Of a stretch of 64,000 bases of DNA, positions 1-61,983 are shown in pieces; positions within the stretch are counted from its first letter, which is position 1; every line of letters begins with the position of its first letter. The stretch is taken from the IMG/VR virus record IMGVR_UViG_3300028603_000027, positions 1-64,000 of that record. One strand, written 5' to 3'. A model generated the notes under the pieces. It was not told the origin of the DNA. It worked only from the letters and a program-made list of their open reading frames with translations, and ran no database searches. A program made the translations under genes and the position numbers. This DNA is from a virus. Its lineage: Duplodnaviria > Heunggongvirae > Uroviricota > Caudoviricetes.

Positions 1-221
1 TTCCCCCACAAGGAAATTACACTTCGGGCAATCCGGCTCAAACTTCTATTGCTTTGTTTAAAGAAGGTGCAGCAGAGGCTTTTCAGGCTAACTGGTATTG
101 GTCTTCAACAGAATATAATTCGTCGCATGGTTGGCTTCAGGGCTTCCACTTTGGTTATCAGAGCACCCGCTACAAGTCTGGTGCGCTCTGTGTTCGGGCC
201 GTTCGGCGTGTTCCAATCTAA
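1..221 (+). CDS. DGR target protein, 3' part (5' end outside window); C-type lectin/DUF1566-like C-terminus containing VR1
   Basis: Frame 3 is open from the window start to TAA 219-221. Translation ends ...NWYWSSTEYNSSHGWLQGFHFGYQSTRYKSGALCVRAVRRVPI, paralogous to the C-termini of ORFs 28997-29383 and 35736-36131. The last 84 nt match TR 903-986 except at TR adenines. Confidence 0.75.
   Translation, partial: PPQGNYTSGNPAQTSIALFKEGAAEAFQANWYWSSTEYNSSHGWLQGFHFGYQSTRYKSGALCVRAVRRVPI
118..201 (+). repeat. DGR variable repeat VR1
   Basis: 84-nt alignment to TR 903-986 with about 20 substitutions, all at positions where the TR has A. Ends with the shared GC-rich tgttcgggccg. Confidence 0.85.
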
Positions 222-225
222 TTGC

Positions 226-256
226 TTTAGCAATTGATTGCAAATGTTTGTTATGT
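226..256 (+). other. Inverted repeat (hairpin/cruciform) just downstream of VR1
   Basis: caatctaattgc-ttta-gcaattgattg forms an 11-12 bp stem with one bulge, 5 nt after the target-gene stop codon. Confidence 0.4.
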
Positions 257-376
257 TCGGGCATTCTCTGTTTATTTGAGAGGTTCGGGCCTTAGAGGGG
301 AGAGGAGCTTTGTGCTCCTCTCGTTATTTTATTCACATATTTTGTATGTTTTTTAGCTAGGCAATTTATTGCCTTT

Positions 377-721
377 ATGTTGGAAATGTTGAAAAGTAAT
401 TTTGTTAAGTATTCTGTAGGTAAAGATAAGTGCTTGGATAAGTACAAGAGTGCTGTTGACTTTATAAGTTCTATTACACATATTGTTAAACGCACATCAT
501 TTCCACTAAAGATAGTGGTAGGAGAACCAATTATTCAGATGGGTTATGACATTTCTGTAGCTTTACAGGAGTATTATAACAAGGAAGATGAGTTTTTCTA
601 CATACCTTCTAAAGTGGATTTAAATGCGCGTTTACGTGTTGCGAAAGATTTGGGCATCCTGAAGGACAAGGATTATGCTCGAATTATATTGCTAGTTGAC
701 AATATTTACAAAGATTTGTAA
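377..721 (+). CDS. avd: Accessory variability determinant (Avd)-like small protein
   Basis: 114-aa ORF lying between the VR-bearing target gene and the TR/RT, the canonical target-avd-TR-RT order. Basic, helical-looking sequence; no direct motif evidence. Confidence 0.5.
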   Translation: MLEMLKSNFVKYSVGKDKCLDKYKSAVDFISSITHIVKRTSFPLKIVVGEPIIQMGYDISVALQEYYNKEDEFFYIPSKVDLNARLRVAKDLGILKDKDYARIILLVDNIYKDL

Positions 722-902
722 AATACGACGCTAGCAAAATCGGGAGCAAAACATAACTGAATATTTTGGTATTCTCCCTGTCGAAAGACACGGATAAGTT
801 GTTTAAAGCTTTAATTAGATGTTTCATTTAATTGCGGCCTTAAATGACAACTGATCGGAACTTCTAAATGTTGTTCTGATTGGTGTGTAATAGGATACAA
901 AC

Positions 903-986
903 ATTCGTCGAATGGTTGGAATCAGAACTTCAACAATGGTAATCAGAACAACAACAACAAGACTAATGCGAACTATGTTCGGGCCG
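903..986 (+). repeat. DGR template repeat (TR)
   Basis: attcgtcgaatggttggaatcagaac...ttcgggccg, about 31 adenines, AAC-rich in the target reading frame (codes SSNGWNQNFNNGNQNNNNKTNANYVRA). Three cognate VRs differ from it only at A positions. Confidence 0.85.
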
Positions 987-996
987 CAAAATATGG

Positions 997-2079
997 TTGT
1001 GTTTTATTTGTTGCGCCCTTGAGGGTGTATTTAAAGGGTTGATTTTGCAGCACGTACCTTGCGATATTGAATTTGAAGAGTTGGTGGAAGCTTACTTCGA
1101 TTGTCGGCGTAATAAAAGAACCACACACTCTGCTTTAGATTTTGAAATGAACTTAGAAGAAAATCTTCTACAACTCTATCATGAATTGAGAACAGGAACC
1201 TATGAGATTGGAAAATCTATATGTTTCGTCGTTAAAATTCCTAGAGTGAGGGAGATTTGGGCAGCAAACTTTAGAGATAGAATTGTACATCATTTGATAT
1301 ACAACAGGATGTCTCCGAAGTGGAATAGAAGATTTAGTGCTGATAGCTGTGCCTGTATTCCAGGCAGAGGAACGCTATACGGTGCGACAAGATTGGAAAA
1401 GCATATACGATCTTTCACAAATAATTGGGAAAAGGATTATTGGTATTTGAAGTGCGACTTGTCAAACTTCTTCGTATCAATAAAGAAGGATGTTTTGTGG
1501 TCTTTAATGGAGCCTTCCATTGAGGATGGTTGGTTAAAAGACATCACTAAGTTGGTGTTGTATAGTGACCCCACTAAAAACTTCACTCTCAATTCAAGAG
1601 ATTGGGAAGCAGAACTCGTTCCCGAGAGAAAGAGATTATGTCTAGCAGGAGAAAATACAGGCTTGCCTATTGGCAATTTAACGAGCCAATTCTTCGCTAA
1701 CATCTTGTTGAATGAGCTAGATAAATTTGCTAAACATACTTTGAAAGCTAAGAAGTATATCCGTTATGTTGATGATTGTATCATCTTAGCGGAAGACAAA
1801 GAAACGCTCATTGAAATGAAGGCGAAAATGGATGAATTTGTGAAGACGATTGGACTTTCGTTCAATCCGAAGAAATGTTTCATTCATAAGATAAACAGAG
1901 GAGTCAGCTTTGTGGGCCAAACTGTCTATCCTCATCGTCGTGTGCCTTTAAAGAACACTGTAGACAAATGCATTGAGAAAGCGATCACCTCTCCAGATTC
2001 TATTCCCTGCTTTATAGCTTATTTTGAACAAGCAGAAAAATCTTATAATTTAGTACAAAGGTTTTTGATAAACACGTAA
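997..2079 (+). CDS. DGR reverse transcriptase
   Basis: RT motifs are present: LPIGNLTSQFFANILLNELD (the DGR-specific IGxxxSQ signature) and YIRYVDDCIIL (YxDD catalytic box). It lies immediately 3' of the TR. Confidence 0.9.
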   Translation: MCFICCALEGVFKGLILQHVPCDIEFEELVEAYFDCRRNKRTTHSALDFEMNLEENLLQLYHELRTGTYEIGKSICFVVKIPRVREIWAANFRDRIVHHLIYNRMSPKWNRRFSADSCACIPGRGTLYGATRLEKHIRSFTNNWEKDYWYLKCDLSNFFVSIKKDVLWSLMEPSIEDGWLKDITKLVLYSDPTKNFTLNSRDWEAELVPERKRLCLAGENTGLPIGNLTSQFFANILLNELDKFAKHTLKAKKYIRYVDDCIILAEDKETLIEMKAKMDEFVKTIGLSFNPKKCFIHKINRGVSFVGQTVYPHRRVPLKNTVDKCIEKAITSPDSIPCFIAYFEQAEKSYNLVQRFLINT

Positions 2080-2104
2080 CTTTAATACTTGACAGAGAAA
2101 ATTT

Positions 2105-2749
2105 ATGAAATATGTACAATTCACTTATGTAGATGTGCAGACAGGGGTTCCTGTCTCTGAAACCCCCGCAGCGAACGGGCCTACTATTCCAGAGGGAATT
2201 ATCCCTACTTTTGATCTTCAAAACACTCGTTCCCAACAGGCACCTATTGTGTTTGGATTTATTCCCGACGAAGCAGAAGAGCTTTTTGACACTCTCCCTG
2301 AGTTTATCAGAGAAGTAGACGAAGATTCCTTCTTCTCCGCTTTTAAGGAAGAACTTAAAGAAAGAGCAAGAACAAAAAGAATTCAAATGGAACAAGGTGG
2401 GGTCATGGTAAATGATTCTGTCATTGGTACTACGATTGAAGATCAAAACCGTGTTACAGGTATGGCTACCACTTTAATGATTGACCCGGATATGGAGAGT
2501 ATTGACTTTGAATACTCTCCAGGGCAATGGATTAACATTTCCCGCGAAGTAGGGTTAGCTATTGGTGTAGCTGTTGCTCGACACGTGCAACACTGCTTCT
2601 CGTGGTGTCGTAATGTTCACGAACAAATTGATTCAATGGAAATTGATATTAACTCCTTAGAAAACGCTATGCCTATTTTGGAAGCTATCAATTCTTTTGG
2701 ACTCACTGACTCTACTCCCGAGGGCGAAGAGCCTACGGACGAAGAGTAA
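2105..2749 (+). CDS. Hypothetical acidic protein
   Basis: 214-aa ORF with an acidic C-terminus (EGEEPTDEE); no recognisable motif. Confidence 0.45.
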   Translation: MKYVQFTYVDVQTGVPVSETPAANGPTIPEGIIPTFDLQNTRSQQAPIVFGFIPDEAEELFDTLPEFIREVDEDSFFSAFKEELKERARTKRIQMEQGGVMVNDSVIGTTIEDQNRVTGMATTLMIDPDMESIDFEYSPGQWINISREVGLAIGVAVARHVQHCFSWCRNVHEQIDSMEIDINSLENAMPILEAINSFGLTDSTPEGEEPTDEE

Positions 2750-2784
2750 TTTACAAATAAATAATTAAATTTAGGAGAATATAA

Positions 2785-2963
2785 TGGCTACTTTTGTAGA
2801 CCCACGAGTGTTGAAGCCTATCACTGACCGACTCACAGGCGAAGCTCTTGAAGCAATTAATGCTGCACTTGATGCTGTAGCAGCTATCCCTTCTGCACCA
2901 GAGACAGGAACTTTCCATCTAGTCTCAACAGATGGCGTTCTTTCTTGGGAAGCGGTTGAGTAA
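2785..2963 (+). CDS. Small hypothetical protein
   Basis: 59-codon ORF (MATFVDPRVLKPITDRLTGEALEAINAALDAVAAIPSAPETGTFHLVSTDGVLSWEAVE) preceded by AGGAG. Confidence 0.4.
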
Positions 2964-3004
2964 TTAAGGGGCTTTGGCCCCTTCCCTCTTCTAGGGGAAC
3001 GTAA

Positions 3005-3589
3005 ATGAAAAGATTCATCACAAAAAAGCTCGTTGCTTTAGGTCTTTCCGCTTCTGCGGCCTTGTCAGCAGGATATTTGATTGTGCCTTGGGAAGGTTCC
3101 GTTAAAAATAAGAAAGGTGAACACGTAGCATATATTGACGCCGTAGGTGTCCCTACTGCTTGTTATGGACAAACAGGAAGAGATTTATACGGAAAGACAA
3201 TACGGAAAGGTATGATTTATTCAGAGCAAGAATGTTTAATCATGTTAGAAAAAAGTGTTAAACATTTTGAAAGTGTTGTAGACAGAAATGTTCGTGTGCC
3301 TTATGCATCTCCCTACCAAAAATCAGCACTAATTTCCTTCACCTATAATCTGGGAGAGGGGAATCTCCGTAGCAGTACACTCCTAAGACAATTAAACGCT
3401 GGACAGCACGAAGCAGCTTGTGAACAGCTTATACGTTGGGTGTATGCAAAGAAAAAGAAATTGAAAGGCTTGGTTGATAGGCGTTCCGAAGAAATGCTAT
3501 GGTGCATGGGGGATGTTCCTTATGAAGTTGAAATCACTTTCTCTGAAATCACGGAGATGGTAAGAGATTTGAATAAGGAGCCACTATGA
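3005..3589 (+). CDS. SAR endolysin, GH24 (T4/lambda-type) lysozyme
   Basis: The N-terminus LVALGLSASAALSAGYLIV is a weakly hydrophobic Gly/Ala/Ser-rich signal-anchor-release type segment. The lysozyme motifs YIDAVGVPTACYGQTG and ISFTYNLGEGNL follow. Confidence 0.8.
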   Translation: MKRFITKKLVALGLSASAALSAGYLIVPWEGSVKNKKGEHVAYIDAVGVPTACYGQTGRDLYGKTIRKGMIYSEQECLIMLEKSVKHFESVVDRNVRVPYASPYQKSALISFTYNLGEGNLRSSTLLRQLNAGQHEAACEQLIRWVYAKKKKLKGLVDRRSEEMLWCMGDVPYEVEITFSEITEMVRDLNKEPL

Positions 3590-3993
3590 AGTTTTTTTCT
3601 AATATAAAAGATAAGATTGCTGTTTCACTAATAGCTGTACTTTCAGTGATTTGTATATTCCTCTACGTTGGTTCTCTCAATCAATCTCACACTATCAACA
3701 AACAAGAGATTGAACTTTCTGCCCTAAGTGAACAGTTAAAAGAAGAAAGAATTCGTGTTAAAAATCTAGTGGCTCTCGCTCAAGAATACGATGAGATAGT
3801 AACTTCTCAAAAAGAAGACACGAAATCTTTACAGAAGGCGACACAAGATGTTATTCAAGGATTAAATAAAAGTAGAGGAAAATTAAATGAAGAAGGAAAA
3901 GATAGTGGGAGCGTTCCTCTTGATGATAATGTTATCGGGATGCTTTCCGACTTATGTGAAAGAGTACGTGGAAGTCCCTGCCCCAATCCCTAG
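3586..3993 (+). CDS. i-spanin (Rz-like)
   Basis: N-terminal transmembrane segment (IAVSLIAVLSVICIFLYVG) followed by a charged coiled-coil region. Sits directly after the endolysin, and its 3' end overlaps the next lipoprotein gene. Confidence 0.5.
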   Translation: MKFFSNIKDKIAVSLIAVLSVICIFLYVGSLNQSHTINKQEIELSALSEQLKEERIRVKNLVALAQEYDEIVTSQKEDTKSLQKATQDVIQGLNKSRGKLNEEGKDSGSVPLDDNVIGMLSDLCERVRGSPCPNP

Positions 3994-4159
3994 TTCCCTT
4001 GTTCAACATCCTTGTTCACCTGTTGGGCCGGGGGAAACAGTTGATGACCTCATGAGAGGATATGCCTTAAATACTTCCTGCGTTGGGGAGTATAAAATCA
4101 CAGTAGACGGAATTAAACAGTATAACGACAAACAGCGGGAGATGAGAGATGGACAGTAA
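3887..4159 (+). CDS. o-spanin (Rz1-like outer-membrane lipoprotein)
   Basis: Signal peptide with lipobox LLMIMLSGC, proline-rich mature part; overlaps the 3' end of the i-spanin in another frame. Confidence 0.5.
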   Translation: MKKEKIVGAFLLMIMLSGCFPTYVKEYVEVPAPIPSSLVQHPCSPVGPGETVDDLMRGYALNTSCVGEYKITVDGIKQYNDKQREMRDGQ

Positions 4160-4484
4160 TGTGAGTGCGAACAGCGTAAACTCCCGTATTAATAAATTTG
4201 TAGAGAAGTTTGCTGTGTGGATTATCGGTGCGTTATTTTCGCTAGGCGTAGCGGGATGGAATAAGATGGATTCTGATATTGACAGGCTTGAGGAAAGAGT
4301 AGCGTTCTTGTATCAAGATAAAGTAAGCCGTCAAGAGTTGAAGGATGAAATGTTTCTTTTACGCACTCAGATCGAAAGAGACAATCAGGATATGCGTAGA
4401 GGGCAAGAGCAACTACGTGGAGATATTCTCAGCAGACTGGAACTTATCTTGAAGTTAGGAACTCCCCAAAAGATAGTGCAGTAG
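4149..4484 (+). CDS. Membrane protein with coiled-coil (possible holin/antiholin or lysis regulator)
   Basis: One predicted TM segment (FAVWIIGALFSLGVAGW) plus a charged helical C-terminus; position at the end of the lysis cassette. Confidence 0.35.
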   Translation: MDSNVSANSVNSRINKFVEKFAVWIIGALFSLGVAGWNKMDSDIDRLEERVAFLYQDKVSRQELKDEMFLLRTQIERDNQDMRRGQEQLRGDILSRLELILKLGTPQKIVQ

Positions 4485-4595
4485 GTAGCTCTAATCTTAA
4501 TTAAACAAACCTGTAAGGCATTTAAATATTGTTTTAAGGGAAGTGTATCAAATAAACAAAAGAGGGCTTAAAAAGCCCCTAAGACTCTCCTAGTT

Positions 4596-4637
4596 TTTAT
4601 AGCCCCACGCCTTTTGGTGTTGGGGCTTTTTCTTTTT
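4596..4637. terminator. Bidirectional rho-independent terminator
   Basis: agcccca-cgccttttggtgt-tggggct stem followed by tttttcttttt, between convergent genes. A second hairpin, gggcttaaaaagccc, lies at about 4565-4579. Confidence 0.6.
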
Positions 4638-4830
4638 ATAAAGAAATAAAAACATGAGTCAACTGCCGTGACTCTCTTCGTAGACCACTGTTAAACATTT
4701 CTTCTGCTACAGCGTCCCGGACATTAACACCCTTACGAAGCAAATCCAATAGGACAACACGCATGTCTTCATCCTCTGCTGCAAGCTTAACAACCGTTTT
4801 CTTATTCTTATCAAAACAATAAATTCTCAT
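4636..4830 (-). CDS. Hypothetical protein
   Basis: ORF only. Confidence 0.3.
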   Translation of the reverse strand: MRIYCFDKNKKTVVKLAAEDEDMRVVLLDLLRKGVNVRDAVAEEMFNSGLRRESRQLTHVFISL

Positions 4831-5114
4831 CAGTAAAATCCTCCTTCTCCATCGTATTGGCCGGGATGTCCGTTATACCCTAAGTCGTGCCATTCATCCA
4901 TGTCCATCGAATGTTCAGATCGTCTTTTCCTGTAGGTTAAAGTGTCTGCCATTTTAAATAAAACTAATAATTGTTTATCAGAAATTCTGTTTTGTTTCAA
5001 AACATTTTTTACAAACTCAAGATCACTAGAGCGTCCACCCAATAGGGTTATTCTTTCACAAAGTAATTTGGGAGTTGTTGCCCTAATATTGTCGTCCAAG
5101 CTGAACCATTTCAT
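4830..5114 (-). CDS. Hypothetical protein
   Basis: ORF only. Confidence 0.35.
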   Translation of the reverse strand: MKWFSLDDNIRATTPKLLCERITLLGGRSSDLEFVKNVLKQNRISDKQLLVLFKMADTLTYRKRRSEHSMDMDEWHDLGYNGHPGQYDGEGGFY

Positions 5115-5528
5115 TTTATTTTCCTAAATAGAAGATTTTCCTATAGAAAATAAACTTCACGTTTAGAAATTTCGATGACAGGAATATTTGCTACATCACA
5201 AGCAAATATCCAACGGTGAAGCTCTCTGTTGCTGAACAAATGTTTTTCGTAGAGTTTCCCGTTAGGAAGAAGAATGGTGAGCACCATTGACGTATAGATC
5301 ATATAAATTCCTTTAAAGTGAATGTAGAAGAATTGTAGAAGTGAAAACGAAAGTTTGCAAGTTGTACTTTTGCAACAACTATTGTTTTTTAAACAAGAAT
5401 TAGCTTGACAAAGAAAAATAAGTATGATATACTATTTAAAATTTTCCGACAGGGAAATTTACTAATATTCCTCCATTCTGTCTCATTTCTATTTTGATAT
5501 GTACAAATACAACATATCCCCAAAAGGA

Positions 5529-5558
5529 GTTGACAAGAAGATCATCAAAGACTATGAT
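5529..5558 (+). promoter_or_regulatory. Sigma70-like promoter upstream of the Prs-like/NAMPT-like operon
   Basis: TTGACA, a 17-nt spacer, then TATGAT, 30 nt upstream of the 5589 start. A second consensus-like promoter (TTGACA-17-TATACT) lies at 5406-5434. Confidence 0.45.
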
Positions 5559-5588
5559 GGCCTCCTATCCAACTTCTAAGGAAAAGGA

Positions 5589-6380
5589 ATGAGTAACGTC
5601 TACGTTTACAAAACTGATTGTAAAGTCTTTAACTTCCCTGCGGGAGAAGTATCTGTTCGTCTGAATGAAGATACTCTTCGGGATGTCTCAACTATTGTTG
5701 CCCATATTCAAAATAGCGATAATATCATGCAAATGCTACTTTTGAATGACGCCCTTCGTCGTGCGGGTCAACAAAAAATCAACCTACTCATTCCTTATGT
5801 TCCTTATTCTAGACAAGACCGTGTATGTAATTCAGGTGAAGCCTTGAGCATCAAAGTGTTTTGTGATCTTGTAAATAGTTGCAATTTCAATTCTGTGTTC
5901 GTCATGGATTGTCACAGTGATGTCACGTTGGCTCTCCTTAATAATGTCCAACATGCTCATCAAAGTGTTGTATTTAGCCAGATTGAAAAAGATTGGGCTA
6001 ATACAATAATTATTTCCCCTGATGCAGGTGCTTTGAAAAAGGCAGAACAATTTGCTAAAGATCGGGGAGCCAAGGGTGTAGTGGTAGCTAATAAGAAACG
6101 TAATGTCTCTACAGGAGACATAGAATATGTAAGACTAACAGAGTCCGTAGCTAATGAAGATGTGTTTGTCGTAGATGATATTTGTGAGGGAGGAGGGACA
6201 TTTCTTCTCCTTGCAGAGCAACTACAAGAAGCCAAGAGTAAAGAAATTGCTGTAAGTCATGGAATTTTTTCTCGTGGAACGGAAGTTTTGACAAGTGTGT
6301 ACGATAGGGTGTACACTACAAACAGTTATCACCCTGAGTTGGAATCCAAAGACAACCTTGTAGTGTTTAAGATTATTTAA
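5589..6380 (+). CDS. PRPP-synthetase-family pyrophosphokinase (Prs-like; candidate ADPR-PP synthetase Adps of NARP1)
   Basis: PRPP-binding motif VFVVDDICEGGGTFLLL and a Prs-type N-terminal domain. At 263 aa it is shorter than housekeeping Prs and is translationally coupled to a NAMPT homologue. Confidence 0.7.
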   Translation: MSNVYVYKTDCKVFNFPAGEVSVRLNEDTLRDVSTIVAHIQNSDNIMQMLLLNDALRRAGQQKINLLIPYVPYSRQDRVCNSGEALSIKVFCDLVNSCNFNSVFVMDCHSDVTLALLNNVQHAHQSVVFSQIEKDWANTIIISPDAGALKKAEQFAKDRGAKGVVVANKKRNVSTGDIEYVRLTESVANEDVFVVDDICEGGGTFLLLAEQLQEAKSKEIAVSHGIFSRGTEVLTSVYDRVYTTNSYHPELESKDNLVVFKII

Positions 6381-6393
6381 AGGAGAAATAAAT

Positions 6394-8106
6394 ATGTTCA
6401 ACCCACTTCTGATGGTAGACGGCTACAAGCTTGGACACCACAACCAATATCCTGAAGGGATGACTTACCTGTTTAGCAATTTTACAGCGCGAAGCAATAA
6501 AAACTTCAAGAAGATCGCGGCAGCGGAATTCTTAGATGATTTTGTAGTGGTATTTGGCACACAAGCTACAGTGTCCTATCTGAATGAGGTGTGGGAGAAG
6601 GAATTCTTTTCTAAGAAGAAAGAAGCTGTTGTAGATGAGTTTGCAAACATCGTTCGTATGTTTTTGAACGACAATTCTTTTACGGTGGAACATGCAGAAG
6701 CCTTGCACGATCTAGGCTATCTTCCAATTAAATTTCACTCTTTGAAAGAAGGGACTCTGTGTAAAGTGAATGTACCGTTCTTTACTTTGGAAAACACTCA
6801 CCCTGATTTCGCTTGGCTTGTCAACTACATTGAAACACAATTGTCTGCGATGCTTTGGAAGCCGATTACTTCAGCAACTATCGCACGGCATTATAAAAAG
6901 ATTTTGAACCGATATTACGAAAAGACATGCGACAATAAAATGGGCATGGAATTTATGGTGCATGATTTTTCGATGCGTGGCTTGTCTAATGTTTTTGATG
7001 CACATTTTTCTGGAATGGGCCATTTGACTTCTTTCAGCGGGAGCGATAACATTCCTGCTTTGGTTGGGGTGCGTAAATACTATGGATGGGACATTGAAAA
7101 AGAATTTTTAGCGGGTGGTGTTCCCGCAACAGAGCATTCAGTTACTTCCAGCAACATTCAATCCTTTGTTGTGACAGAAGGATGTGATGAACTTGAGGCT
7201 GAAAAGAAAACAATTGAATATTTGATTTCAAAATATCCCTCTGGTTTTCTTTCGTATGTTTCAGATACGTATGATTATTACGGAGTAATTTCAGAGGTGT
7301 TGCCATCTTTAAAAGACAAATTGATGGCTCGGGAAGGGAAATTTGTTGTTCGCCCTGACAGCGGTAATCCTATAGATATCATTTGCGGTTTGGATATTCC
7401 TACTGTAGGCGATTCCACAGCCGCTGCTTGGAATTTGTACGATCAAGTGTCGTGTGATACGCCGCACGGTGAACGTGGAGAGGATATTGTCTCAGGTGTA
7501 TTTCTAATCAACGGAGAATATCGTAACATCAAAATTGTAATTGATTGGAATCGTTACGACAAACAGTATTATTACACAGACGGTTATGAAATTATTTCAG
7601 ATGAAGTGGTTTCTCTGACACCGGAGATGAAGGGGTCGCTGCGTTGTTTGTGGGATGCCTTTGGCGGTACACTGAATGAAAAGGGTTATATGGTATTGGA
7701 TTCCCATATTGGAATTATCTATGGAGACAGTATCACCCCTCAGAGAATGCACGAGATTCTTGAGCGTATGAAGCAAATGGGTTTTGCTGCATCTAATGTT
7801 GTGTTCGGGGCAGGAAGTTTCACATATCAATATACGACACGAGATACCTTTGGCATGGCAATGAAGGCCACATATTGCGAAGTAAATGATGTTCCTGTCA
7901 AGTTGTTTAAAGACCCCAAAACAGGAGACGGCAGTAAGAAGTCTGCTAAGGGGATGTTGGTTGTTCAAGACGGTGTATTGGTGGACGACATGGTGTATGG
8001 AGAGTATTTGGGTCAAAAGAACAACTTGGAAGAAATCAATTCTACTCCTAAAGACACATTCGACGTAATTCGTCAACGGATTAACGAGGGATTAAATGCA
8101 AGTTGA
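6394..8106 (+). CDS. Nicotinamide phosphoribosyltransferase family protein (NadV/NAMPT-like; candidate Namat of NARP1)
   Basis: N-terminus MFNPLLMVDGYKLGHHNQYPEGMTYLFSNFTARS is the typical NAMPT start; 570 aa; the start codon is 14 nt after the Prs-like gene. Confidence 0.8.
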   Translation: MFNPLLMVDGYKLGHHNQYPEGMTYLFSNFTARSNKNFKKIAAAEFLDDFVVVFGTQATVSYLNEVWEKEFFSKKKEAVVDEFANIVRMFLNDNSFTVEHAEALHDLGYLPIKFHSLKEGTLCKVNVPFFTLENTHPDFAWLVNYIETQLSAMLWKPITSATIARHYKKILNRYYEKTCDNKMGMEFMVHDFSMRGLSNVFDAHFSGMGHLTSFSGSDNIPALVGVRKYYGWDIEKEFLAGGVPATEHSVTSSNIQSFVVTEGCDELEAEKKTIEYLISKYPSGFLSYVSDTYDYYGVISEVLPSLKDKLMAREGKFVVRPDSGNPIDIICGLDIPTVGDSTAAAWNLYDQVSCDTPHGERGEDIVSGVFLINGEYRNIKIVIDWNRYDKQYYYTDGYEIISDEVVSLTPEMKGSLRCLWDAFGGTLNEKGYMVLDSHIGIIYGDSITPQRMHEILERMKQMGFAASNVVFGAGSFTYQYTTRDTFGMAMKATYCEVNDVPVKLFKDPKTGDGSKKSAKGMLVVQDGVLVDDMVYGEYLGQKNNLEEINSTPKDTFDVIRQRINEGLNAS

Positions 8107-8319
8107 TAATCGACAATATTTTTCTTGGCCTTATGGGAAAGAAAAAGAAGAGAAGGGAGGGTTCTTTGATTTGCCCGGAAGGGCTTATCCTTGCTATTCT
8201 CCTTACCACAATTTTCCTTCTCATCTCTATATCCCGCCAGGGAAGGGGTATAGGCATGTATGCCCCGACTGCGGAGCAGTGACAGAAGTACACAACAATG
8301 CAGTATTTTAGGAAGATAC

Positions 8320-8781
8320 ATGATTGATTTTAATAAGCCAGTTCAAACTATTAAAGGGAAGCCTGTTATTGTAATCACAACAAATGGGCCAGATCAAAAT
8401 TTTCCAATTGTGGGGCATATCAAAAACAGTGAAGTTATTCGATCTTGGAATCTGTATGGTAAGTTGCGTAAAGGGAGCGAATCGTTTAACATACAAAATG
8501 CTCCACCACTAGACGACTTTGTTGTAGATATAGTGGATGGAAATGGAAGATTGATGGCTAATGTCAAAGTTATGCCAGAAGAGAATAGAATTTCTGTTGA
8601 AACGAAAGAAGGAATTTCTTTGTACAAGAACGGGAAGAGTGTAAATGAAGTTGCAATTAAACGAGAATCCGCCCCAGCACCTGTCCCTGAGGGAGATTTA
8701 GCGTCAGCGTTTTTTAAGCAGTTTAGCTCCAACGGAAGAATATTAGATGATGGTTTGGAGGAAACGGATGGTCAAGATTAA
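8320..8781 (+). CDS. Hypothetical protein
   Basis: ORF starting MIDFNKPVQ with AGGAAG upstream; the longer 8260 start seems less likely. Confidence 0.4.
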   Translation: MIDFNKPVQTIKGKPVIVITTNGPDQNFPIVGHIKNSEVIRSWNLYGKLRKGSESFNIQNAPPLDDFVVDIVDGNGRLMANVKVMPEENRISVETKEGISLYKNGKSVNEVAIKRESAPAPVPEGDLASAFFKQFSSNGRILDDGLEETDGQD

Positions 8782-26945: not shown

Positions 26946-27281
26946 ATGCAACCTACTGAAGAACAAGTTGTTAACAAGTGGATTTCACTAAAGAACAGTG
27001 CAGCTAGTCGAAAATTGAAATTTGATTTGACCGTTCTTTCGGTTAGAAATCTTCTACGAGCAGAAAAATGTTTTTATACAGGCGTTAGCTTTAATTCTAA
27101 GATGAGGGGTTTAGGTAAAACAATAGATCGGATAGACCCTAATAAGGGGTATGTCAGAGGGAATGTGGTAGCGTGTACAGATGGGTACAATCAAGCTAAA
27201 GCCCAATGGGAGAAGCTAGATAAGAAAGGTGTAAGAGCCATGATTAGACAGTTGAAAATTATTGAGGAGAGAATGAAATAA
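26946..27281 (+). CDS. Hypothetical protein
   Basis: ORF preceded by the promoter TTGACA-17-TATAGT at about 26876-26905. Confidence 0.4.
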   Translation: MQPTEEQVVNKWISLKNSAASRKLKFDLTVLSVRNLLRAEKCFYTGVSFNSKMRGLGKTIDRIDPNKGYVRGNVVACTDGYNQAKAQWEKLDKKGVRAMIRQLKIIEERMK

Positions 27282-27595
27282 TGTACAAGCTTTTTATAGA
27301 TGATGAGAGATTTCCAATCGACCCTCATTGGTTTGTAGCCAGGAATTCTTTTGAAGCAATCAAAGCCATAGACCTTTACGGCATCCCTCAAGAAATAGCT
27401 TTTGACCATGATTTAGGTGGACAGGATACGGCTATCATCTTTATAAATTGGTTGGAAGACAAGTTGGTAGAAGGGGTGTATAATCTTCCTCAAGGCTTCA
27501 TTTGGAGTGTACACAGTCAGAATCCAATTGGGGCTAAAAACATACAGGCACGAATGGAAGACCTAGCTGATTATTTTGGAGAAAAGCATGTCTAG
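27281..27595 (+). CDS. Hypothetical protein
   Basis: ORF only. Confidence 0.4.
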   Translation: MYKLFIDDERFPIDPHWFVARNSFEAIKAIDLYGIPQEIAFDHDLGGQDTAIIFINWLEDKLVEGVYNLPQGFIWSVHSQNPIGAKNIQARMEDLADYFGEKHV

Positions 27596-28996: not shown

Positions 28997-29383
28997 ATGT
29001 CCAATATCGAACTCGTGAAGGATGACGTAGCGTATGTGAATGGCAAGGCTTACAAGCTGGTTCCTATTCCTACAGAGAAGATTTTTATTGGCGAAGTAGA
29101 CGGTAAAAAGTATTACCTTGGCCCTGAGGCTGATCGTCAAATGAATTGGGAGCAGGCTAAGAAGTGGGTCGCGTCGGCTGGCGGTCAACTGATGCCACGA
29201 GAAGTAGGCGTTCTTGCATTCAAAAAGGCTGAAATCCGCAAACAATTTCGTACCGATGATTGGTACTGGCTTGAAGATGAGTACAGTTCGTCGCATGGTT
29301 GGATTCAGTACTTCTACAATGGTAGTCAGGGCTACAGCACCAAGCCTGATGCGTTCTATGTTCGGGCCGTCTTCGTTGAATAA
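28997..29383 (+). CDS. Remote DGR target 2: small C-type-lectin/DUF1566-like protein with C-terminal VR2
   Basis: MSNIELVKDD... start after AAGGAGAAAG. The motif WEQAKKWVASAGGQLMPREVGVLAF is DUF1566-like. The C-terminus SSSHGWIQYFYNGSQGYSTKPDAFYVRAVFVE is encoded by VR2. Confidence 0.75.
   Translation: MSNIELVKDDVAYVNGKAYKLVPIPTEKIFIGEVDGKKYYLGPEADRQMNWEQAKKWVASAGGQLMPREVGVLAFKKAEIRKQFRTDDWYWLEDEYSSSHGWIQYFYNGSQGYSTKPDAFYVRAVFVE
29286..29369 (+). repeat. DGR variable repeat VR2
   Basis: 84 nt aligned to TR 903-986; all mismatches are at TR adenines. Confidence 0.85.
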
Positions 29384-30914: not shown

Positions 30915-31829
30915 ATGCAAAGTGTTGACATCAACGGGAAGAAATATATTCTCGCAGAACAGGAAGGGATGATTAACATCACCTCTCAAAGCAAGAAAGA
31001 AATAGAAAGGCTTGAAGCTTCTTTTTGTACGGATATTGTGCCGTGCCTCGCAGAAGCCAATGCTGTATTGGCAGGCGGCGCTCTCACAAGTCTTTTTACT
31101 AACAAAGAAGTAAATGATTACGACATTTATTTTAAAAACGTAGAAGGCTTTCAAAGTATTATTAATGATATTTATGACACTCCTGAAAGCGGAAGCGTCT
31201 TGAGCAGTTATGATGTCATAGTAAATTTTGCCACTGATCGGAGTATCCTCTGCAAAGAGAAGTGGAGCGAAAATGCGATTCAATTCATCGTTTATAAAAT
31301 GTTCCCCGACATTCAAGACATTTTTAATGCTTTTGATTTTACTGTTAATATGTGTGCTTACGATTTTGCAACACAACAGATGTGGGCGCATCCAGATTTC
31401 TTGAAACACTGTTCACAGCGTTACCTCTCCTTTAATGGGAGAACAGATTATCCTGTTGTGTCAGCACTTCGGGTAATGAAATATACAGAACGAGGCTATA
31501 CAATATCTAAAGCAGAAATGCTTAGAATTCTCTTCACTATTGCAGCTAAGGAATATAAAGATTGGCAGAGTGTGAAAGAAGAAGTAGGTAGTATGTACGG
31601 AATCCCTGTTGACAAGCTATTTGACGAAACAAAAGAATTTAATCTGGAAGAAGTAGTGCTGCAACTGAACAATTGCGTAGCGTTAGACAAACCTAGGGTT
31701 ATGGCAGAAGCTTACGACACTAAAGATTTGGCGACGAAGTTCCCGCATCTTTTAGATCAAAAGTGGGCAGAAAATAATAACTTTTGGTGGGCGAAAGAGG
31801 CGTATGGGCAAGAACAAGTTCACCTCTAA
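30915..31829 (+). CDS. Pol-beta-superfamily nucleotidyltransferase domain protein
   Basis: The hG[GS]x9-13Dh[DE]h pattern is matched by AGGALTSLFTNKEVNDYDIYF. Confidence 0.4.
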   Translation: MQSVDINGKKYILAEQEGMINITSQSKKEIERLEASFCTDIVPCLAEANAVLAGGALTSLFTNKEVNDYDIYFKNVEGFQSIINDIYDTPESGSVLSSYDVIVNFATDRSILCKEKWSENAIQFIVYKMFPDIQDIFNAFDFTVNMCAYDFATQQMWAHPDFLKHCSQRYLSFNGRTDYPVVSALRVMKYTERGYTISKAEMLRILFTIAAKEYKDWQSVKEEVGSMYGIPVDKLFDETKEFNLEEVVLQLNNCVALDKPRVMAEAYDTKDLATKFPHLLDQKWAENNNFWWAKEAYGQEQVHL

Positions 31830-35735: not shown

Positions 35736-36131
35736 ATGCAAGCAAAAACAATCATTATTGACGGCGTAGAATACAGCCTTACCCCTGTTAACCAAAACGG
35801 ATTTATCGGAGAGGTGAACGGCAAGCGTTATTATTTGGGGCCGGAAGCAGACGAACAGATGACACAGGAAGAAGCCCGCGATTGGTGCGCTTCCCTGGGT
35901 GATAATTTCGAGCTTCCCTCACGTGTTGTAATGCTTTTGTGTTATAATAATAAGGAATTGCGTAAACAGTTTCAGACTGATGATTATTACTGGACAAATG
36001 ACGAATACGAGAATGATTCGTCGCGTGGTTGGTATCAGACCTTCACCAGTGGTCATCAGGGCTACCACAACAAGACTACTGCGAACTATGTTCGGGCCGT
36101 GCGTGTCGAGGAGGCGAAGCCCCAAAATTAA
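35736..36131 (+). CDS. Remote DGR target 3: small C-type-lectin/DUF1566-like protein with C-terminal VR3 (paralogue of target 2)
   Basis: Paralogous to 28997-29383 (GEVNGKRYYLGPEADEQM..., ELRKQFQTDDYYW). C-terminus SSRGWYQTFTSGHQGYHNKTTANYVRAV is encoded by VR3. Promoter TTGACA-17-TACAAT at about 35566-35595. Confidence 0.75.
   Translation: MQAKTIIIDGVEYSLTPVNQNGFIGEVNGKRYYLGPEADEQMTQEEARDWCASLGDNFELPSRVVMLLCYNNKELRKQFQTDDYYWTNDEYENDSSRGWYQTFTSGHQGYHNKTTANYVRAVRVEEAKPQN
36016..36099 (+). repeat. DGR variable repeat VR3
   Basis: 84 nt aligned to TR 903-986; all mismatches are at TR adenines. Confidence 0.85.
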
Positions 36132-52477: not shown

Positions 52478-52915
52478 CTACCCTTTATTTAAATTTTCAA
52501 ATTGTTGGAGGATTACTGTTTCTCCCACAGAACGATTATCTCTCAGTGCATCTCTTTTAATACACGTTTCCAAAGAAGTGTCCATTCTGAAAAATTCCAC
52601 TTCATATCCAAGCGTCTCCAAAAGGAATTTTACTTTATCCCGTTCTTTCTTTTTACAAAGCGTGTCAGAAATAATTATATTCCGACACAGTTCTTGTGCT
52701 CTATAAATCTCAGAGTGCCAATAAAAAGTTACTACGTCTTCCCAAGGAGAGAAAGGCTTGTAGCCATTCCATCCGTTTTCATGAAAGCCTGGAATAACTT
52801 CTGCTCGAATAACATCCCGTTCAATCCGTACAGCATATTCCGCACCATCCAGCACAGATTCTGCTAGAGTAGATTTACCAGACCCCGAAGGGCCGTAAAT
52901 AATCAATGCTTCCAT
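52478..52915 (-). CDS. Polynucleotide 5'-kinase (T4 Pnk kinase-domain-like)
   Basis: LIIYGPSGSGKSTLAE, RDVIRAEV and IIISDTL parallel the T4 Pnk motifs GCPGSGKST, RDDYR and IISDTNL. Start set at MEALIIYG. Confidence 0.6.
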   Translation of the reverse strand: MEALIIYGPSGSGKSTLAESVLDGAEYAVRIERDVIRAEVIPGFHENGWNGYKPFSPWEDVVTFYWHSEIYRAQELCRNIIISDTLCKKKERDKVKFLLETLGYEVEFFRMDTSLETCIKRDALRDNRSVGETVILQQFENLNKG

Positions 52916-52923
52916 TATATCTC

Positions 52924-54204
52924 CTAAGACACTGTTTCCATGTCTACAACATCTGCAAGCCCTTCCATTACCCGGAAGGGGTAACTTTTGCATTTGAAAA
53001 ACTTGGGGTTTGTTTTATTAGTGTCTACTCTGACAATAATACCTTCTCCGATCATTCCTGAAAACTGATGGTCTTCTCCAAGATGTTCAGGACGCTCCGT
53101 GAGCTTTTCCACCAACTCACGCAAGGCTTCTTCGTCTCCGTTGTAGATCATCTGAGGGTGAACTTCAAATGTGGATTCAATTCCTCTATTCTCACACCAT
53201 TGTTCCATTTCCTTTTGAGACAAATCAATGTTTTTACCATCAACAGTTTGCCGGGTTATCCGGTAAATGTGCCACTTGTATTCACCTTCTGTGCAACCGT
53301 AGTGAAACACATTGGTATTACCATATTTCTCTGTGTACCGCTTGTCTTTCAAAGCTTTTATGTCTCCATTAGGCATAATAGCCTTACCGTTGACAAAACC
53401 AACAATTTCTCCATACACGGTCATTCCATCTTCTAACAGAGGATAGATTTCTCTACCTACCTCGAAACGGAAAGATTCACTTCCATGAAAACCTTCTTTG
53501 TATTCTTGTTGTAGCGTGACATTTCTACTTCCAACCACCATTTCATAATCCCCTGTAAGAGGAAAGATAGGCGCAATCTTGTTAATCAGTTTCTTCCAAC
53601 GAGGAAGTTCTACTGTTCTTCGCATTTTGGCTACTCGCATGGAAGTGCCATGCCGCTTGTTATGAAAAGAAAGAAGAGCACCCACAGGAATGTTGGCCGC
53701 AAAGTGTCGGAAGTTATCGGTGTCAGAATGTTTTTCAAACAAAGGAAAAGCGTTAGCCTTTACTGTCTTGGTTCTTTGGTTTCCTATTGCCTTTCGAGCC
53801 TGTTCAGTGATGTATTTTTGACAAATTTTAACACCATTGAGTTCATCAAATTCTGTTCCAAGTTGAGTAGGCACTTCTCCGCAGAATGCCAAGCTCTCCA
53901 GAGAAGAGAAATACCCGCTACTACGAACTTTCAAAAAGGGTTGTGCTCGTACTTTACGATTATCATCAAAGAAACCTTTCTTATCAGAATCAGCATTCTT
54001 TTCAGAATTACGGAAAAGATTATTTTCTCGGCAATATTGTTCTGAAAGTTGAACATCTACAGGAAAGAATACACCTATAAACCCTACAGGCAAATCCTTT
54101 GAGACAACGACAGGTTCACCAAGTACGTAGGCAATTTGAATTCGATCTGCACCGGGGATAGTCTCTACTTTATCAATCTTAGCGATAATTGCTTTGTGTG
54201 CCAT
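52924..54204 (-). CDS. Putative RNA ligase (Rnl2-like nucleotidyltransferase)
   Basis: FHNKRHGTSMRV fits the KxHGT[NS] motif I of Rnl2-type ligases. Lies between the Pnk-like kinase and a metallophosphoesterase. Confidence 0.4.
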   Translation of the reverse strand: MAHKAIIAKIDKVETIPGADRIQIAYVLGEPVVVSKDLPVGFIGVFFPVDVQLSEQYCRENNLFRNSEKNADSDKKGFFDDNRKVRAQPFLKVRSSGYFSSLESLAFCGEVPTQLGTEFDELNGVKICQKYITEQARKAIGNQRTKTVKANAFPLFEKHSDTDNFRHFAANIPVGALLSFHNKRHGTSMRVAKMRRTVELPRWKKLINKIAPIFPLTGDYEMVVGSRNVTLQQEYKEGFHGSESFRFEVGREIYPLLEDGMTVYGEIVGFVNGKAIMPNGDIKALKDKRYTEKYGNTNVFHYGCTEGEYKWHIYRITRQTVDGKNIDLSQKEMEQWCENRGIESTFEVHPQMIYNGDEEALRELVEKLTERPEHLGEDHQFSGMIGEGIIVRVDTNKTNPKFFKCKSYPFRVMEGLADVVDMETVS

Positions 54205-54219
54205 ACTCTACCTCTTAAA

Positions 54220-54444
54220 TTAGCTCAGAAGAGCGGAAATCTTCGCAGCAATATTTTCCGCACGATTAGCCTCTTCCTTGCTCTTCTTTTGTTCAATCTG
54301 AAGACTATTAATCTCTGTTTCAATACGTGAGACGTTATCTTGTTGCTTCTGTACAATTCCTTCAAGGCGGTCAAGTACAGAAGTAAAATCTGAAATCACA
54401 TTATCAACAGTATCAGTCTTCTTAAAGATATTTTTAATTTCCAT
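54220..54444 (-). CDS. Small coiled-coil protein
   Basis: ORF only. Confidence 0.35.
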   Translation of the reverse strand: MEIKNIFKKTDTVDNVISDFTSVLDRLEGIVQKQQDNVSRIETEINSLQIEQKKSKEEANRAENIAAKISALLS

Positions 54445-54633
54445 TTAATTCTCCTTTATTGCGATTTTTAAAAGTTTTTCCAAGTGTTGAATTTGGTTTC
54501 TGCCTTCTCGAAGAGCATAAGATAAAATTTTATAATCTCTTTCTTCAATGGGCTTGCTACTTAGCGATATTGCTTCAAGCAGTGTAATCGCTTCTTCTAG
54601 TGTTGTCAACGATTCCTTAGATGTTTTCTGCAT
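54445..54633 (-). CDS. Small coiled-coil protein
   Basis: ORF only. Confidence 0.35.
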   Translation of the reverse strand: MQKTSKESLTTLEEAITLLEAISLSSKPIEERDYKILSYALREGRNQIQHLEKLLKIAIKEN

Positions 54634-55114
54634 TTTTACTTCTCAACTCTTTTACTACGTCTTCAAAAAGAATTGGCTTATATTCTGTGTGTTCCAGACA
54701 AACGTTTCTGTATCGCCCATCAGGAATAACATTGGAATGCATGTGTCCGTGTACACAAAACTTTCCTCTAAGCTCTACAGGATGGATAGGAGCATGAGAT
54801 AGCCAACATCCTTTCTTGTTATGCAAACTATACACTTTGTTATACGTTTGTGTCAACAGTGAAAAGTTTAGGCGCTCTACATCGTGATTACCAAGAATTA
54901 AAACTTTATATCCAGGCCACTTAGCAATTTCCTCTAAAGCTTCAGACGTAAACGCCACATCTCCAAGAAACATAACAGTATCACGTTTAGTGACAACTGA
55001 ATGATATTGTTCTTTTACAAATTCATCGTGCTCTTCCGCAGAAGCAAAAGGTCGATATTTATGGATATTCCTATGCCCTCTGTGCAAGTCACTTGTTACA
55101 AAAACTCTACTCAT
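54617..55114 (-). CDS. Calcineurin-like metallophosphoesterase
   Basis: Motifs SDLHRGH, FLGDVA and LILGNHDVE. Confidence 0.7.
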   Translation of the reverse strand: MSRVFVTSDLHRGHRNIHKYRPFASAEEHDEFVKEQYHSVVTKRDTVMFLGDVAFTSEALEEIAKWPGYKVLILGNHDVERLNFSLLTQTYNKVYSLHNKKGCWLSHAPIHPVELRGKFCVHGHMHSNVIPDGRYRNVCLEHTEYKPILFEDVVKELRSKNAENI

Positions 55115-61786: not shown

Positions 61787-61862
61787 GTTGGTATAGATTA
61801 ACGGATAGATCACAACCCTTTCAAGGTTGCGGCGTAGGGTTCAACTCCCACTACCAACTCCA
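61787..61862 (+). tRNA. tRNA-Glu (anticodon TTC) candidate with weak T-stem
   Basis: Acceptor gttggta/taccaac, D-stem gatt/gatc, anticodon stem caacc/ggttg with loop ctttcaa, T-loop ttcaact, encoded CCA. The T-stem has only 3 clean base pairs. Confidence 0.35.
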
Positions 61863-61909
61863 AACATTGCTTATGTTAGGCATAAGCTGAAGTCAACTTA
61901 GGCTTCTTT

Positions 61910-61983
61910 CTTTCTGTAGCGTAATGGTAGCGTACTTCGTTTGGGGCGAAGTGGTCGAGGTTCGAGTCCTCGTGGAAAGACCA
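61910..61983 (+). tRNA. tRNA-Pro (anticodon TGG)
   Basis: Anticodon stem cttcg/cgaag with loop tttgggg, T-arm cgagg-ttcgagt-cctcg, acceptor ctttctg/tggaaag (two G-U pairs), encoded CCA. Confidence 0.55.

Follow-up and report, generated by a model that had tools for sequence, protein, structure and literature searches.

A probable minimal NARP1 cassette in the genome of an uncultured contractile-tailed phage of about 87 kb

NAD+ reconstitution pathway 1 (NARP1) rebuilds nicotinamide adenine dinucleotide (NAD+) in phage-infected cells through two enzymes: Adps, a homologue of the phosphoribosyl pyrophosphate (PRPP) synthetase Prs, pyrophosphorylates ADP-ribose (ADPR), and Namat joins the product, ADPR-pyrophosphate (ADPR-PP), to nicotinamide (bioRxiv 10.1101/2024.02.11.579819). 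The pathway occurs in 859 of about 20,000 phage genomes (4.3%), its Prs homologue forms an Adps clade apart from prokaryotic PRPP synthetases (Osterman et al., Fig. 3C, bioRxiv 10.1101/2024.02.11.579819), and 97% of Adps-clade genes have namat within 10 genes, a neighbour that bacterial prs genes almost never have (same preprint). Its targets are type I Thoeris, DSR1/2, SIR2-HerA and SEFIR. NARP2 also restores NAD+ in infected cells, with a KVP40-type Nampt and an Nmnat; when both substrates are offered, KVP40 Nampt prefers PRPP and Namat prefers ADPR-PP. Of the phages with a KVP40-type Nampt, 94% encode Nmnat, and no phage with both NARP1 and NARP2 was found. Extended operons share the Adps and Namat core and carry in addition, no more than two genes away from the pair, a Macro-domain phosphatase, Adpp (NARP1-AP; bioRxiv 10.64898/2026.01.28.702374), or a RyR-domain glycosidase, RyDEP (bioRxiv 10.64898/2026.05.28.727677). 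Here we analysed a gene pair in a stretch of 64,000 nucleotides (nt), positions 1 to 64,000 of the IMG/VR virus record IMGVR_UViG_3300028603_000027 (hereafter the window), for which an initial annotation read from the sequence alone had proposed a NARP1-like cassette. Our results indicate that the two genes are very probably a minimal NARP1 cassette of an uncultured contractile-tailed phage of about 87 kb.

Both open reading frames (ORFs) are intact and have the extents and lengths first described for them. The second follows the first directly on the same strand after a spacer of 13 nt, without overlap:

5589..6380, + strand: adps, predicted ADP-ribose pyrophosphokinase (ADPR-PP synthetase) of the Prs superfamily, 263 amino acids (aa); called from family matches, profile scores, a neighbour-joining (NJ) tree and signature columns
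6168..6203, + strand: ribose-5-phosphate (R5P)/PRPP-type binding loop VVDDICEGGGTF of adps, aa 194-205; placed by alignment
6394..8106, + strand: namat, predicted nicotinamide ADP-ribose transferase of the Nampt superfamily, long form, 570 aa; called from Protein Data Bank (PDB), motif and tree evidence

In the proposed pathway, the 263-aa Adps would, judging from its clade, move pyrophosphate from ATP onto the terminal ribose of ADPR to give ADPR-PP, and the 570-aa Namat, judging from its clade, catalytic core and adenine-clamp helix, would then swap the pyrophosphate for nicotinamide to give NAD+ directly. Such a route would run without nicotinamide mononucleotide (NMN) as an intermediate and would not need an NMN adenylyltransferase (NMNAT). 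ADPR and nicotinamide are exactly the products of the SIR2-, TIR- and SEFIR-type NADase effectors of defence systems, and the cassette would therefore be expected to restore NAD+ once type I Thoeris, DSR1/2, SIR2-HerA or a similar system has been triggered.

The initial annotation had assigned the two proteins to the Prs and NAMPT families and had pointed out the PRPP-binding loop of the former. The loop was located at the position listed above, and both family assignments are borne out by Pfam and PHROG matches far beyond chance. For the 263-aa protein these are PF13793 Pribosyltran_N (1e-20), PF00156 Pribosyltran (6e-8) and phrog_619 (7e-82), together with 166.5 bits to TIGR01251. As references we used phages with experimental evidence, namely SPbetaL1 (enzymes purified) and FADO and Bas63 (deletions), together with E. 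coli prs. Pairwise scores of the window protein were 132 bits to Bas63 Adps, 100 to E. coli Prs and 99-108 to SPbetaL1 Adps. Since this comparison is ambiguous, profile scores, phylogeny and signature columns were applied. The profile scores were as follows:

TIGR01251 (Prs), bits: window 166.5; SPbetaL1 Adps 106; FADO Adps 96.5; Bas63 Adps 138.5; E. coli Prs 422.7
phrog_619 (phage family), bits: window 275.7; SPbetaL1 Adps 247.9; FADO Adps 246; Bas63 Adps 333; E. coli Prs 193.3

The window protein missed every NCBIfam Prs equivalog cut-off, with a best score of 136 bits against a cut-off of 296. It passed the broad subfamily cut-off of TIGR01251 (166.5 versus 113), as Bas63 Adps also does. 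On profile scores the window protein behaves as an Adps. Its best 120 homologues among 5.8 billion proteins are all 248-308 aa long and come mostly from metagenome contigs, with contigs of 85-100 kb, matching this phage in size, recurring, and E. coli Prs is far more distant from it (about 1e-26 to 1e-28).

An NJ tree with Kimura distances was built from 268 columns and 52 sequences: the window protein, 3 validated Adps, 36 of the 120 best metagenomic homologues, and 12 Prs (9 gammaproteobacterial, human PRPS2, and the class III archaeal enzymes of S. solfataricus and T. volcanium). The search with E. coli Prs yielded only gammaproteobacterial Prs, 80-99% identical, and the human and archaeal sequences were transcribed from PDB alignments. 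All non-Prs sequences formed one clade, with archaeal class III Prs as its sister group, and the window protein was nested in it between Bas63 Adps and the SPbetaL1/FADO pair. The window protein and Bas63 Adps were united in a clade free of Prs in 300/300 bootstraps, as were the window protein and SPbetaL1 Adps in 297/300, and the split between Prs and non-Prs sequences was recovered in 297/300 once a rogue taxon had been removed. This taxon, which had lowered the support to 156/200, was the Kolpuevirus gene upstream of namat; it is not Prs-like (no BLAST match) and was discarded as an Adps, the true adps of that phage lying downstream. Thus the window protein groups with the validated Adps of Bas63, SPbetaL1 and FADO, apart from all 12 PRPP synthetases tested, and is bracketed by lineages with direct evidence in vivo (Bas63) and in vitro (SPbetaL1).

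Nine alignment columns are conserved within the Adps clade and within Prs yet differ between the two. The window protein shows the Prs residue at none of the nine; its residue is that of the Adps clade or a conservative variant. One of them, column 272, lies in the R5P loop, which in Prs has the form DT[G/A]GT: the Thr is invariant (100%) in the 12 Prs compared, Gly occupies the column in 95% of the Adps clade with F/Y in SPbetaL1/FADO, and the window protein has Gly201. The residues shared across the superfamily are intact, and K169 aligns with the SPbetaL1 active-site residue K162. The flexible loop K-x-R-N-x-x-T-G-E/D-I was considered as an Adps signature and dropped, the Prs of S. solfataricus having KERDRTTGEV. 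Taken together, profiles, tree and columns assign the 263-aa protein to the Adps clade and not to the PRPP synthetases.

The 570-aa protein matches PF04095 NAPRTase (2e-31), PF18127 NAMPT_N (9e-6), phrog_448 (1e-176) and NF006629 (460 bits). The last two were set aside as discriminators, Namat and Nampt both scoring high against them. Its best PDB matches are 9w5x/9w5w (E=3e-123, 415.7 bits), compared with 2e-60 and about 208 bits for mammalian NAMPT. The sequence of 9w5x/9w5w is 100% identical to the SPbetaL1 gene, and its residue numbering agrees with the Namat structure paper (PMC12774641). According to that paper, the selectivity-clamp helix (SCH) has the motif GS-X-Phi-X-Phi-X-Phi-TRD, in which the aromatic residues 3 and 7 stack on the adenine of ADPR-PP/NAD+ and Phi3 is mainly Asn or Val. 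A second element, the selectivity-clamp loop (SCL, beta1-beta2), supplies a further stacking residue: its third residue is Arg, Lys or Tyr, and if it is Lys or Tyr, the following residue stacks on adenine. The corresponding features of the window protein are:

7813..7845, + strand: SCH motif GSFTYQYTTRD, aa 474-484, with the predicted adenine-stacking aromatics F476 and Y480; fits the Namat consensus (PMC12774641)
6478..6546, + strand: SCL region, about aa 29-51, FTARSNKNFKKIAAAEFLDDFVV; placed by alignment, Lys34 aligning with SPbetaL1 Arg40
7390..7626, + strand: insertion (about 79 aa, at aa 333-411) that the short-form Namats of SPbetaL1 and FADO do not have; placed by alignment

The window SCH has F at position 3 and Y at position 7, with T as Phi1, Q as Phi2 and Thr, a small and polar residue, as Phi3. 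The motif reads GSFTYQYNTRD in SPbetaL1 and FADO and GSYTYQYMTRD in Bas63. In contrast, the corresponding stretch is GGGLLQxxxRD in all three NARP2-type phage Nampts compared, those of Vibrio phage D483, Klebsiella phage P-KP2 and Aeromonas phage 50AhydR13PP. Equivalents of D13, Y15, F189, R192, D215, R306, D308, R399 and D400 and the catalytic His of ATEHS are conserved in the window protein, so that the nicotinamide-, ribose- and phosphate-contacting residues are all kept. The protein is 39-48% identical to Namats versus 31% to NARP2-type Nampts, and an NJ tree separated the Namats, including the window protein, from the NARP2-type Nampts in 500/500 bootstraps. phrog_15800, a family that separates both kinds, scored the window protein at 305 bits, Namats at 312-480 and NARP2-type Nampts at 85-114. 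The insertion is matched by one of similar length at the same place in Bas63 Namat; being common to a functional Namat, it represents a common long form. These results mark the 570-aa protein, by sequence, as a Namat.

The initial annotation had seen no NMNAT gene near the cassette, and our searches extend this to about 90% of the phage genome. The window corresponds to positions 18269-82268 of an 87,318-bp contig (ena:ERZ27247346:k141_2051786), which adds 14.7 kb of flanking sequence. A tblastn search with E. coli NadR and NadD had no match at E<=1 in the flanks, and its best match in the window reached only E=0.78. Pfam scans of 67 ORFs of at least 100 aa, the two cassette genes excluded, found no CTP_transf_like domain (PF01467), and the precomputed Pfam tables for contig positions 8645-87318 contain no cytidylyltransferase-like family. 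The only HxGH-like pattern match, at 36027, lies in a small target protein of a diversity-generating retroelement (DGR) and was rejected as an NMNAT.

Among the described systems, Bas63 (Escherichia phage JohannRWettstein, a Felixounavirus; genes 79-80; bioRxiv 10.1101/2024.02.11.579819) carries the full pair in the same order, adps-namat, on the same strand and with a short spacer. Its Adps is the closest validated relative of the window Adps (33% identity, 132 bits). Its Namat is likewise of the long form (593 aa, versus 570 aa in the window) with the insertion at the same place, an SCL Lys aligned with SPbetaL1 Arg40 and an SCH of the same type (GSYTYQYMTRD, compared with GSFTYQYTTRD in the window), and both phages are myoviruses of about 87 kb. 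The two differ in that identity is only 33% for Adps and 39-40% for Namat, in that the window Adps is 30 aa shorter and does not have the N-terminal extension of Bas63 Adps, and in the residues after the SCL Lys, which are Asn-Phe in the window and Trp-Phe in Bas63, the window loop being 3 residues longer. The neighbouring genes also differ, encoding a helicase and PolA in the window phage and NrdG and rIIA in Bas63. For the Bacillus phage SPbetaL1 (structures 9w5w/9w5x, PMC12774641), the equivalents of the SCH aromatics F392/Y396 are identical in the window, the catalytic and NMN-binding residues of Namat are the same, and Adps K162 corresponds to window K169. However, SPbetaL1 Namat, at 491 aa, belongs to the short form that does not have the 79-aa insertion, and its Arg40 lies in a shorter SCL; the R5P loop of SPbetaL1 Adps reads DDLSSFGGTF and that of the window DDICEGGGTF, and identity to the window proteins is 31-33% (Adps) and 39-46% (Namat).

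NARP2 resembles the window system in having a Nampt-superfamily enzyme and in restoring NAD+ in infected cells, but it has no Adps and requires Nmnat, whereas the window phage has a predicted Adps and no Nmnat was found in the window and its flanks. With the PRPP synthetases, both class I (bacterial and human) and class III (archaeal; 4twb of S. solfataricus and 3lpn of T. volcanium), the window Adps shares the fold family PF13793 + PF00156 and the conserved FxxGE, RQDR, DxH, PDxG, K-x-R and DD...G-T elements. It resembles archaeal class III Prs in length and flexible loop and, unlike class I Prs, has neither the N-terminal strand-helix nor the C-terminal helix.

The pairing of the two genes is kept in SPbetaL1 and FADO as well as Bas63, and in two relatives, one with 97% identity (L010) and one with 60% (Adps) and 63% (Namat) identity (L011). 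Between adps and namat, L011 (10001-13141) has two paralogous DUF8296 genes (105 and 118 aa) that share the motif CCLGVLCD and are absent from the window; they could be an uncharacterised NARP1 accessory or a mobile insertion. The closest homologue of the window Namat in the phage collection (48% identity) is encoded by the crAss-like Kolpuevirus 'frurule' (L015, Bacteroides host). There the pair is adjacent in the reversed order, namat-adps (4001-6547), and both genes are annotated 'hypothetical protein'. In addition, phrog_12872 (547 positions) is matched by the window Adps at positions 14-221 and by the window Namat at positions 221-503, and this family seems to be built on fused Adps-Namat proteins.

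The signals for expression and the genes that follow the pair were read from the sequence:

5405..5433, + strand: promoter-like site P1, TTGACA-17-TATACT with an extended -10 TG; an 11/12 consensus match only, ahead of the cassette in the intergenic region between divergent genes
5530..5558, + strand: promoter-like site P2, TTGACA-17-TATGAT; 11/12 sigma-70-like match, 30 nt upstream of the adps start codon
5578..5582, + strand: putative ribosome-binding site AAGGA, 6 nt ahead of the adps ATG
6381..6385, + strand: putative ribosome-binding site AGGAG for namat, 8 nt ahead of the namat ATG and inside the 13-nt spacer; the adps stop codon TAA is at 6378-6380
8096..8311, + strand: 71-aa ORF whose ATG overlaps the namat end by 11 nt; weak zinc-ribbon matches, E about 0.005-0.009
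8320..8781, + strand: 153-aa ORFan, next in the same transcription unit; candidate pathway member at most

P2 is the site that had been described as a consensus sigma70 promoter. It is promoter-like, but at 11/12 it is not a perfect match, and P1 is a second site of equal score. Translational coupling of the two genes had likewise been proposed; the close spacing and shared transcription stand, whereas the genes do not overlap and namat has an AGGAG of its own in the spacer, so that coupling is only possible. Neither the adps-namat spacer nor the stretch of 900 nt downstream of namat has a terminator-like site on the + strand, and the sole + strand match inside the pair is weak and lies within the namat coding sequence (6650-6671). 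Co-transcription of the closely spaced adps and namat is well supported by this layout. Given its place downstream of sigma-70-like promoters, as the first genes of a rightward replication operon (DnaB-like helicase, PolA), the cassette is probably expressed early. The 71-aa ORF is probably co-transcribed with it and is at most a candidate member of the pathway.

Small extra genes packed directly after namat are a feature that the window has in common with the extended NARP1 operons. However, hmmscan at E<=1 found no Macro (PF01661, PF14519, PF20016) or RyR (PF02026) domain in the 3 genes upstream and 2 genes downstream of the cassette (the source papers used the more sensitive HHpred), and no Macro- or RyR-domain gene was found in the window or its flanks. 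The 153-aa ORFan had no Pfam or PHROG match and found only itself among 5.8 billion proteins. Its single-sequence AF2 model (pLDDT 45.8) was too poor for a fold search. It shows a weak match (30% over 72 aa) to a 182-aa protein encoded upstream of adps in L011, and no similarity to the L011 gene at the corresponding position. On present evidence the cassette appears to be a minimal two-gene NARP1, and it would be expected to fail against aRES-type defence.

The preference for NARP1 over Prs plus NadV salvage, voiced in the initial annotation, draws support from both clades, the clamp motif and the negative NMNAT search. In the main alternative, a conventional salvage pathway, a short class III-like PRPP synthetase and an NMN-making Nampt would leave the completion of NAD+ to host NadR, NadD or NadM, as a host-dependent route resembling NARP2. 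In its favour, the two proteins are members of the Prs and Nampt superfamilies with every shared catalytic residue in place. The window Adps clears the TIGR01251 cut-off and is, of the Adps compared, the nearest to E. coli Prs. Archaeal class III Prs match it in length, have the K-x-R...TGE loop in common with it and are sister to the Adps clade, and SPbetaL1 Namat makes NMN from PRPP in vitro if ADPR-PP is absent. Nevertheless, the window protein groups with validated Adps away from archaeal and bacterial Prs (297-300/300 bootstraps) and has the Prs residue at none of the nine discriminating columns, its partner carries the adenine-clamp aromatics, which are missing from NARP2-type Nampts, and adjacency to namat is typical of the Adps clade and almost never seen for bacterial prs. 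Moreover, Bas63 overcame defence even in a host without pncC and nadR (bioRxiv 10.1101/2024.02.11.579819). We therefore regard conventional salvage as unlikely. Several points do weigh against a NARP1 assignment. Substrate specificity is read by homology from characterised enzymes with only 28-33% (Adps) and 39-46% (Namat) identity, and the Adps tree is distance-based with a small Prs outgroup in which the human and two archaeal sequences are partial. Among the Adps compared, that of the window is the most Prs-like (100 bits to E. coli Prs versus 50-66 for the others), and it may for this reason have residual PRPP synthetase activity. The window SCL exceeds that of the reference Namats by 3-7 residues, and Lys34 is followed by Asn, then Phe; the position after the Lys or its equivalent is aromatic in Bas63 (Trp) and FADO (Tyr), so that a third adenine-stacking contact is at most putative in the window Namat. 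Finally, the NMNAT search spans contig positions 8645-87318, about 90% of the 87.3 kb; the first 8.6 kb (1-8644), between the capsid and tape-measure genes, would be expected to hold head-tail and tail genes.

NARP1 chemistry could also serve general metabolic support, as an NAD+ top-up for replication, and not counter-defence in the natural host. The cassette heads a replication and nucleotide module (helicase, PolA, NT5C-like nucleotidase, Thy1, ribonucleotide reductase (RNR)), and NARP2 raises NAD+ even without a defence system. Counter-defence is here a predicted role. On the other side, ADPR-PP was detected only under active NADase defence, since free ADPR and nicotinamide are the products of such defence, and deletion of NARP1 from Bas63 or FADO gave a phenotype on defence-carrying cells. 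The same phage has a precomputed match to the anti-Gabija family Gad2 (not reproduced by direct hmmscan), and it encodes an ATP-dependent DNA ligase domain (PF01068), an NAD-dependent ligase not being listed. A purely metabolic role thus appears highly improbable. It is also decidedly improbable that the 71-aa and 153-aa genes form a novel accessory module for NARP1, comparable to Adpp or RyDEP, that feeds in another NAD+ breakdown product or immune signal, or that the long SCL and the 79-aa insertion alter the donor specificity of Namat; bearing on such a module is the weak homologue of the 153-aa protein beside adps in the 60%-identical relative. The idea that one or both genes are decayed or repurposed relics without NAD-related activity is hardly credible: nothing specific speaks for it beyond high divergence, the 79-aa insertion and the longer SCL, whereas both ORFs keep their full length and every shared catalytic residue, the pair is kept at 97% and about 60% identity in independent metagenomic phages, and the insertion recurs in the functional Bas63 Namat. 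A minimal NARP1 cassette directed at NAD-depleting defence remains the reading that we favour.

The contig flanks hold terminase, portal, protease and major capsid protein genes on one side and tape measure, baseplate and tail fibre genes on the other. By this gene content the contig is the complete or nearly complete genome, about 87 kb, of a contractile-tailed phage and no part of a bacterial chromosome. A nucleotide search with the cassette against 50,697 phage records gave zero matches; the phage is thus new at the DNA level, and comparison was made by protein searches. The large terminase has 49% identity to its counterparts in PAK_P5-like Pseudomonas myoviruses (~88 kb), with Felix O1-like coliphages also among the matches, which places the phage by sequence as a distant relative of the PAK_P5-like and Felix O1-like myoviruses, groups that commonly carry NARP1. 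Felix O1-like phages and the PAK_P1-like phages of Pseudomonas encode a Namat homologue, and homologues of Adps are widespread among phages of Pseudomonas, Escherichia and Salmonella. Proteins identical to those of the window stand in GenBank as 'ribose-phosphate diphosphokinase' (MCK9530391.1) and 'nicotinate phosphoribosyltransferase' (MCK9530392.1) in a metagenome-assembled genome (MAG) of a 'Gammaproteobacteria bacterium'. The deposition of an 87-kb phage genome in this MAG is probably a binning artefact, and a host assignment from it would be unsafe.

The DGR of the phage comprises a reverse transcriptase gene at 997-2079 (RVT_1, 3e-21), a 114-aa Avd-sized ORF at 377-721, an 84-nt template repeat at 903-986 and variable repeats (VR) at 118-201, 29286-29369 and 36016-36099. 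Lcl_C-like genes carry the variable repeats at their 3' ends; they are a 504-aa tail-fibre gene running off the window start and small ORFs at 28997-29383 and 35736-36131. The differences between the repeats and the template (20, 15 and 12) are all on template adenines. When the window was compared with the ENA assembly of the same phage (1-10721, 11117-32088 and 31390-64000), the two were identical except at 34 positions. Since all of these lie inside VR1 and VR2, the DGR appears to be active.

Other genes of the phage were noted in passing. The Gad2 (PF26128) match belongs to a 304-aa protein at 30915-31829 (+); a direct hmmscan of the local Pfam copy gave none, probably because the model is absent from that copy. 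If the match is true, this would be a second anti-defence gene of the phage. A stand-alone 104-aa cREC_REC protein (PF20274, cyclic-phosphate processing receiver domain, E=3.6e-18) is encoded at 27281-27595 (+), just after the RNR genes, and a 461-aa DUF2828/DUF7788 protein at 13507-14892 (+) lies downstream of the helicase and PolA genes in the window, L010 and L011. Five tRNA genes (+) are present, Arg-TCT, Gly-TCC and Leu-CAA in 14968-15215 and Glu-TTC and Pro-TGG in 61787-61983. An RNA-repair-like cluster at 52478-55114 (-) consists of an AAA_33/Zeta_toxin-type kinase (52478-52993), an RNA ligase (52924-54204) and a Metallophos phosphoesterase (54617-55114), with the ATP-dependent DNA ligase domain gene and a PhoH-like gene nearby.

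For annotation, this locus illustrates that NARP1 proteins carry the names of housekeeping enzymes in public records although the contig is a phage genome. The finding opens no new question on NAD+ warfare. It adds one divergent example from an uncultured phage, otherwise an ordinary member, to a published anti-defence system, and it shows that sequence features alone, namely the clamp-helix motif, the Adps signature columns and the lack of an Nmnat, can tell NARP1 apart from ordinary Prs/NadV salvage.

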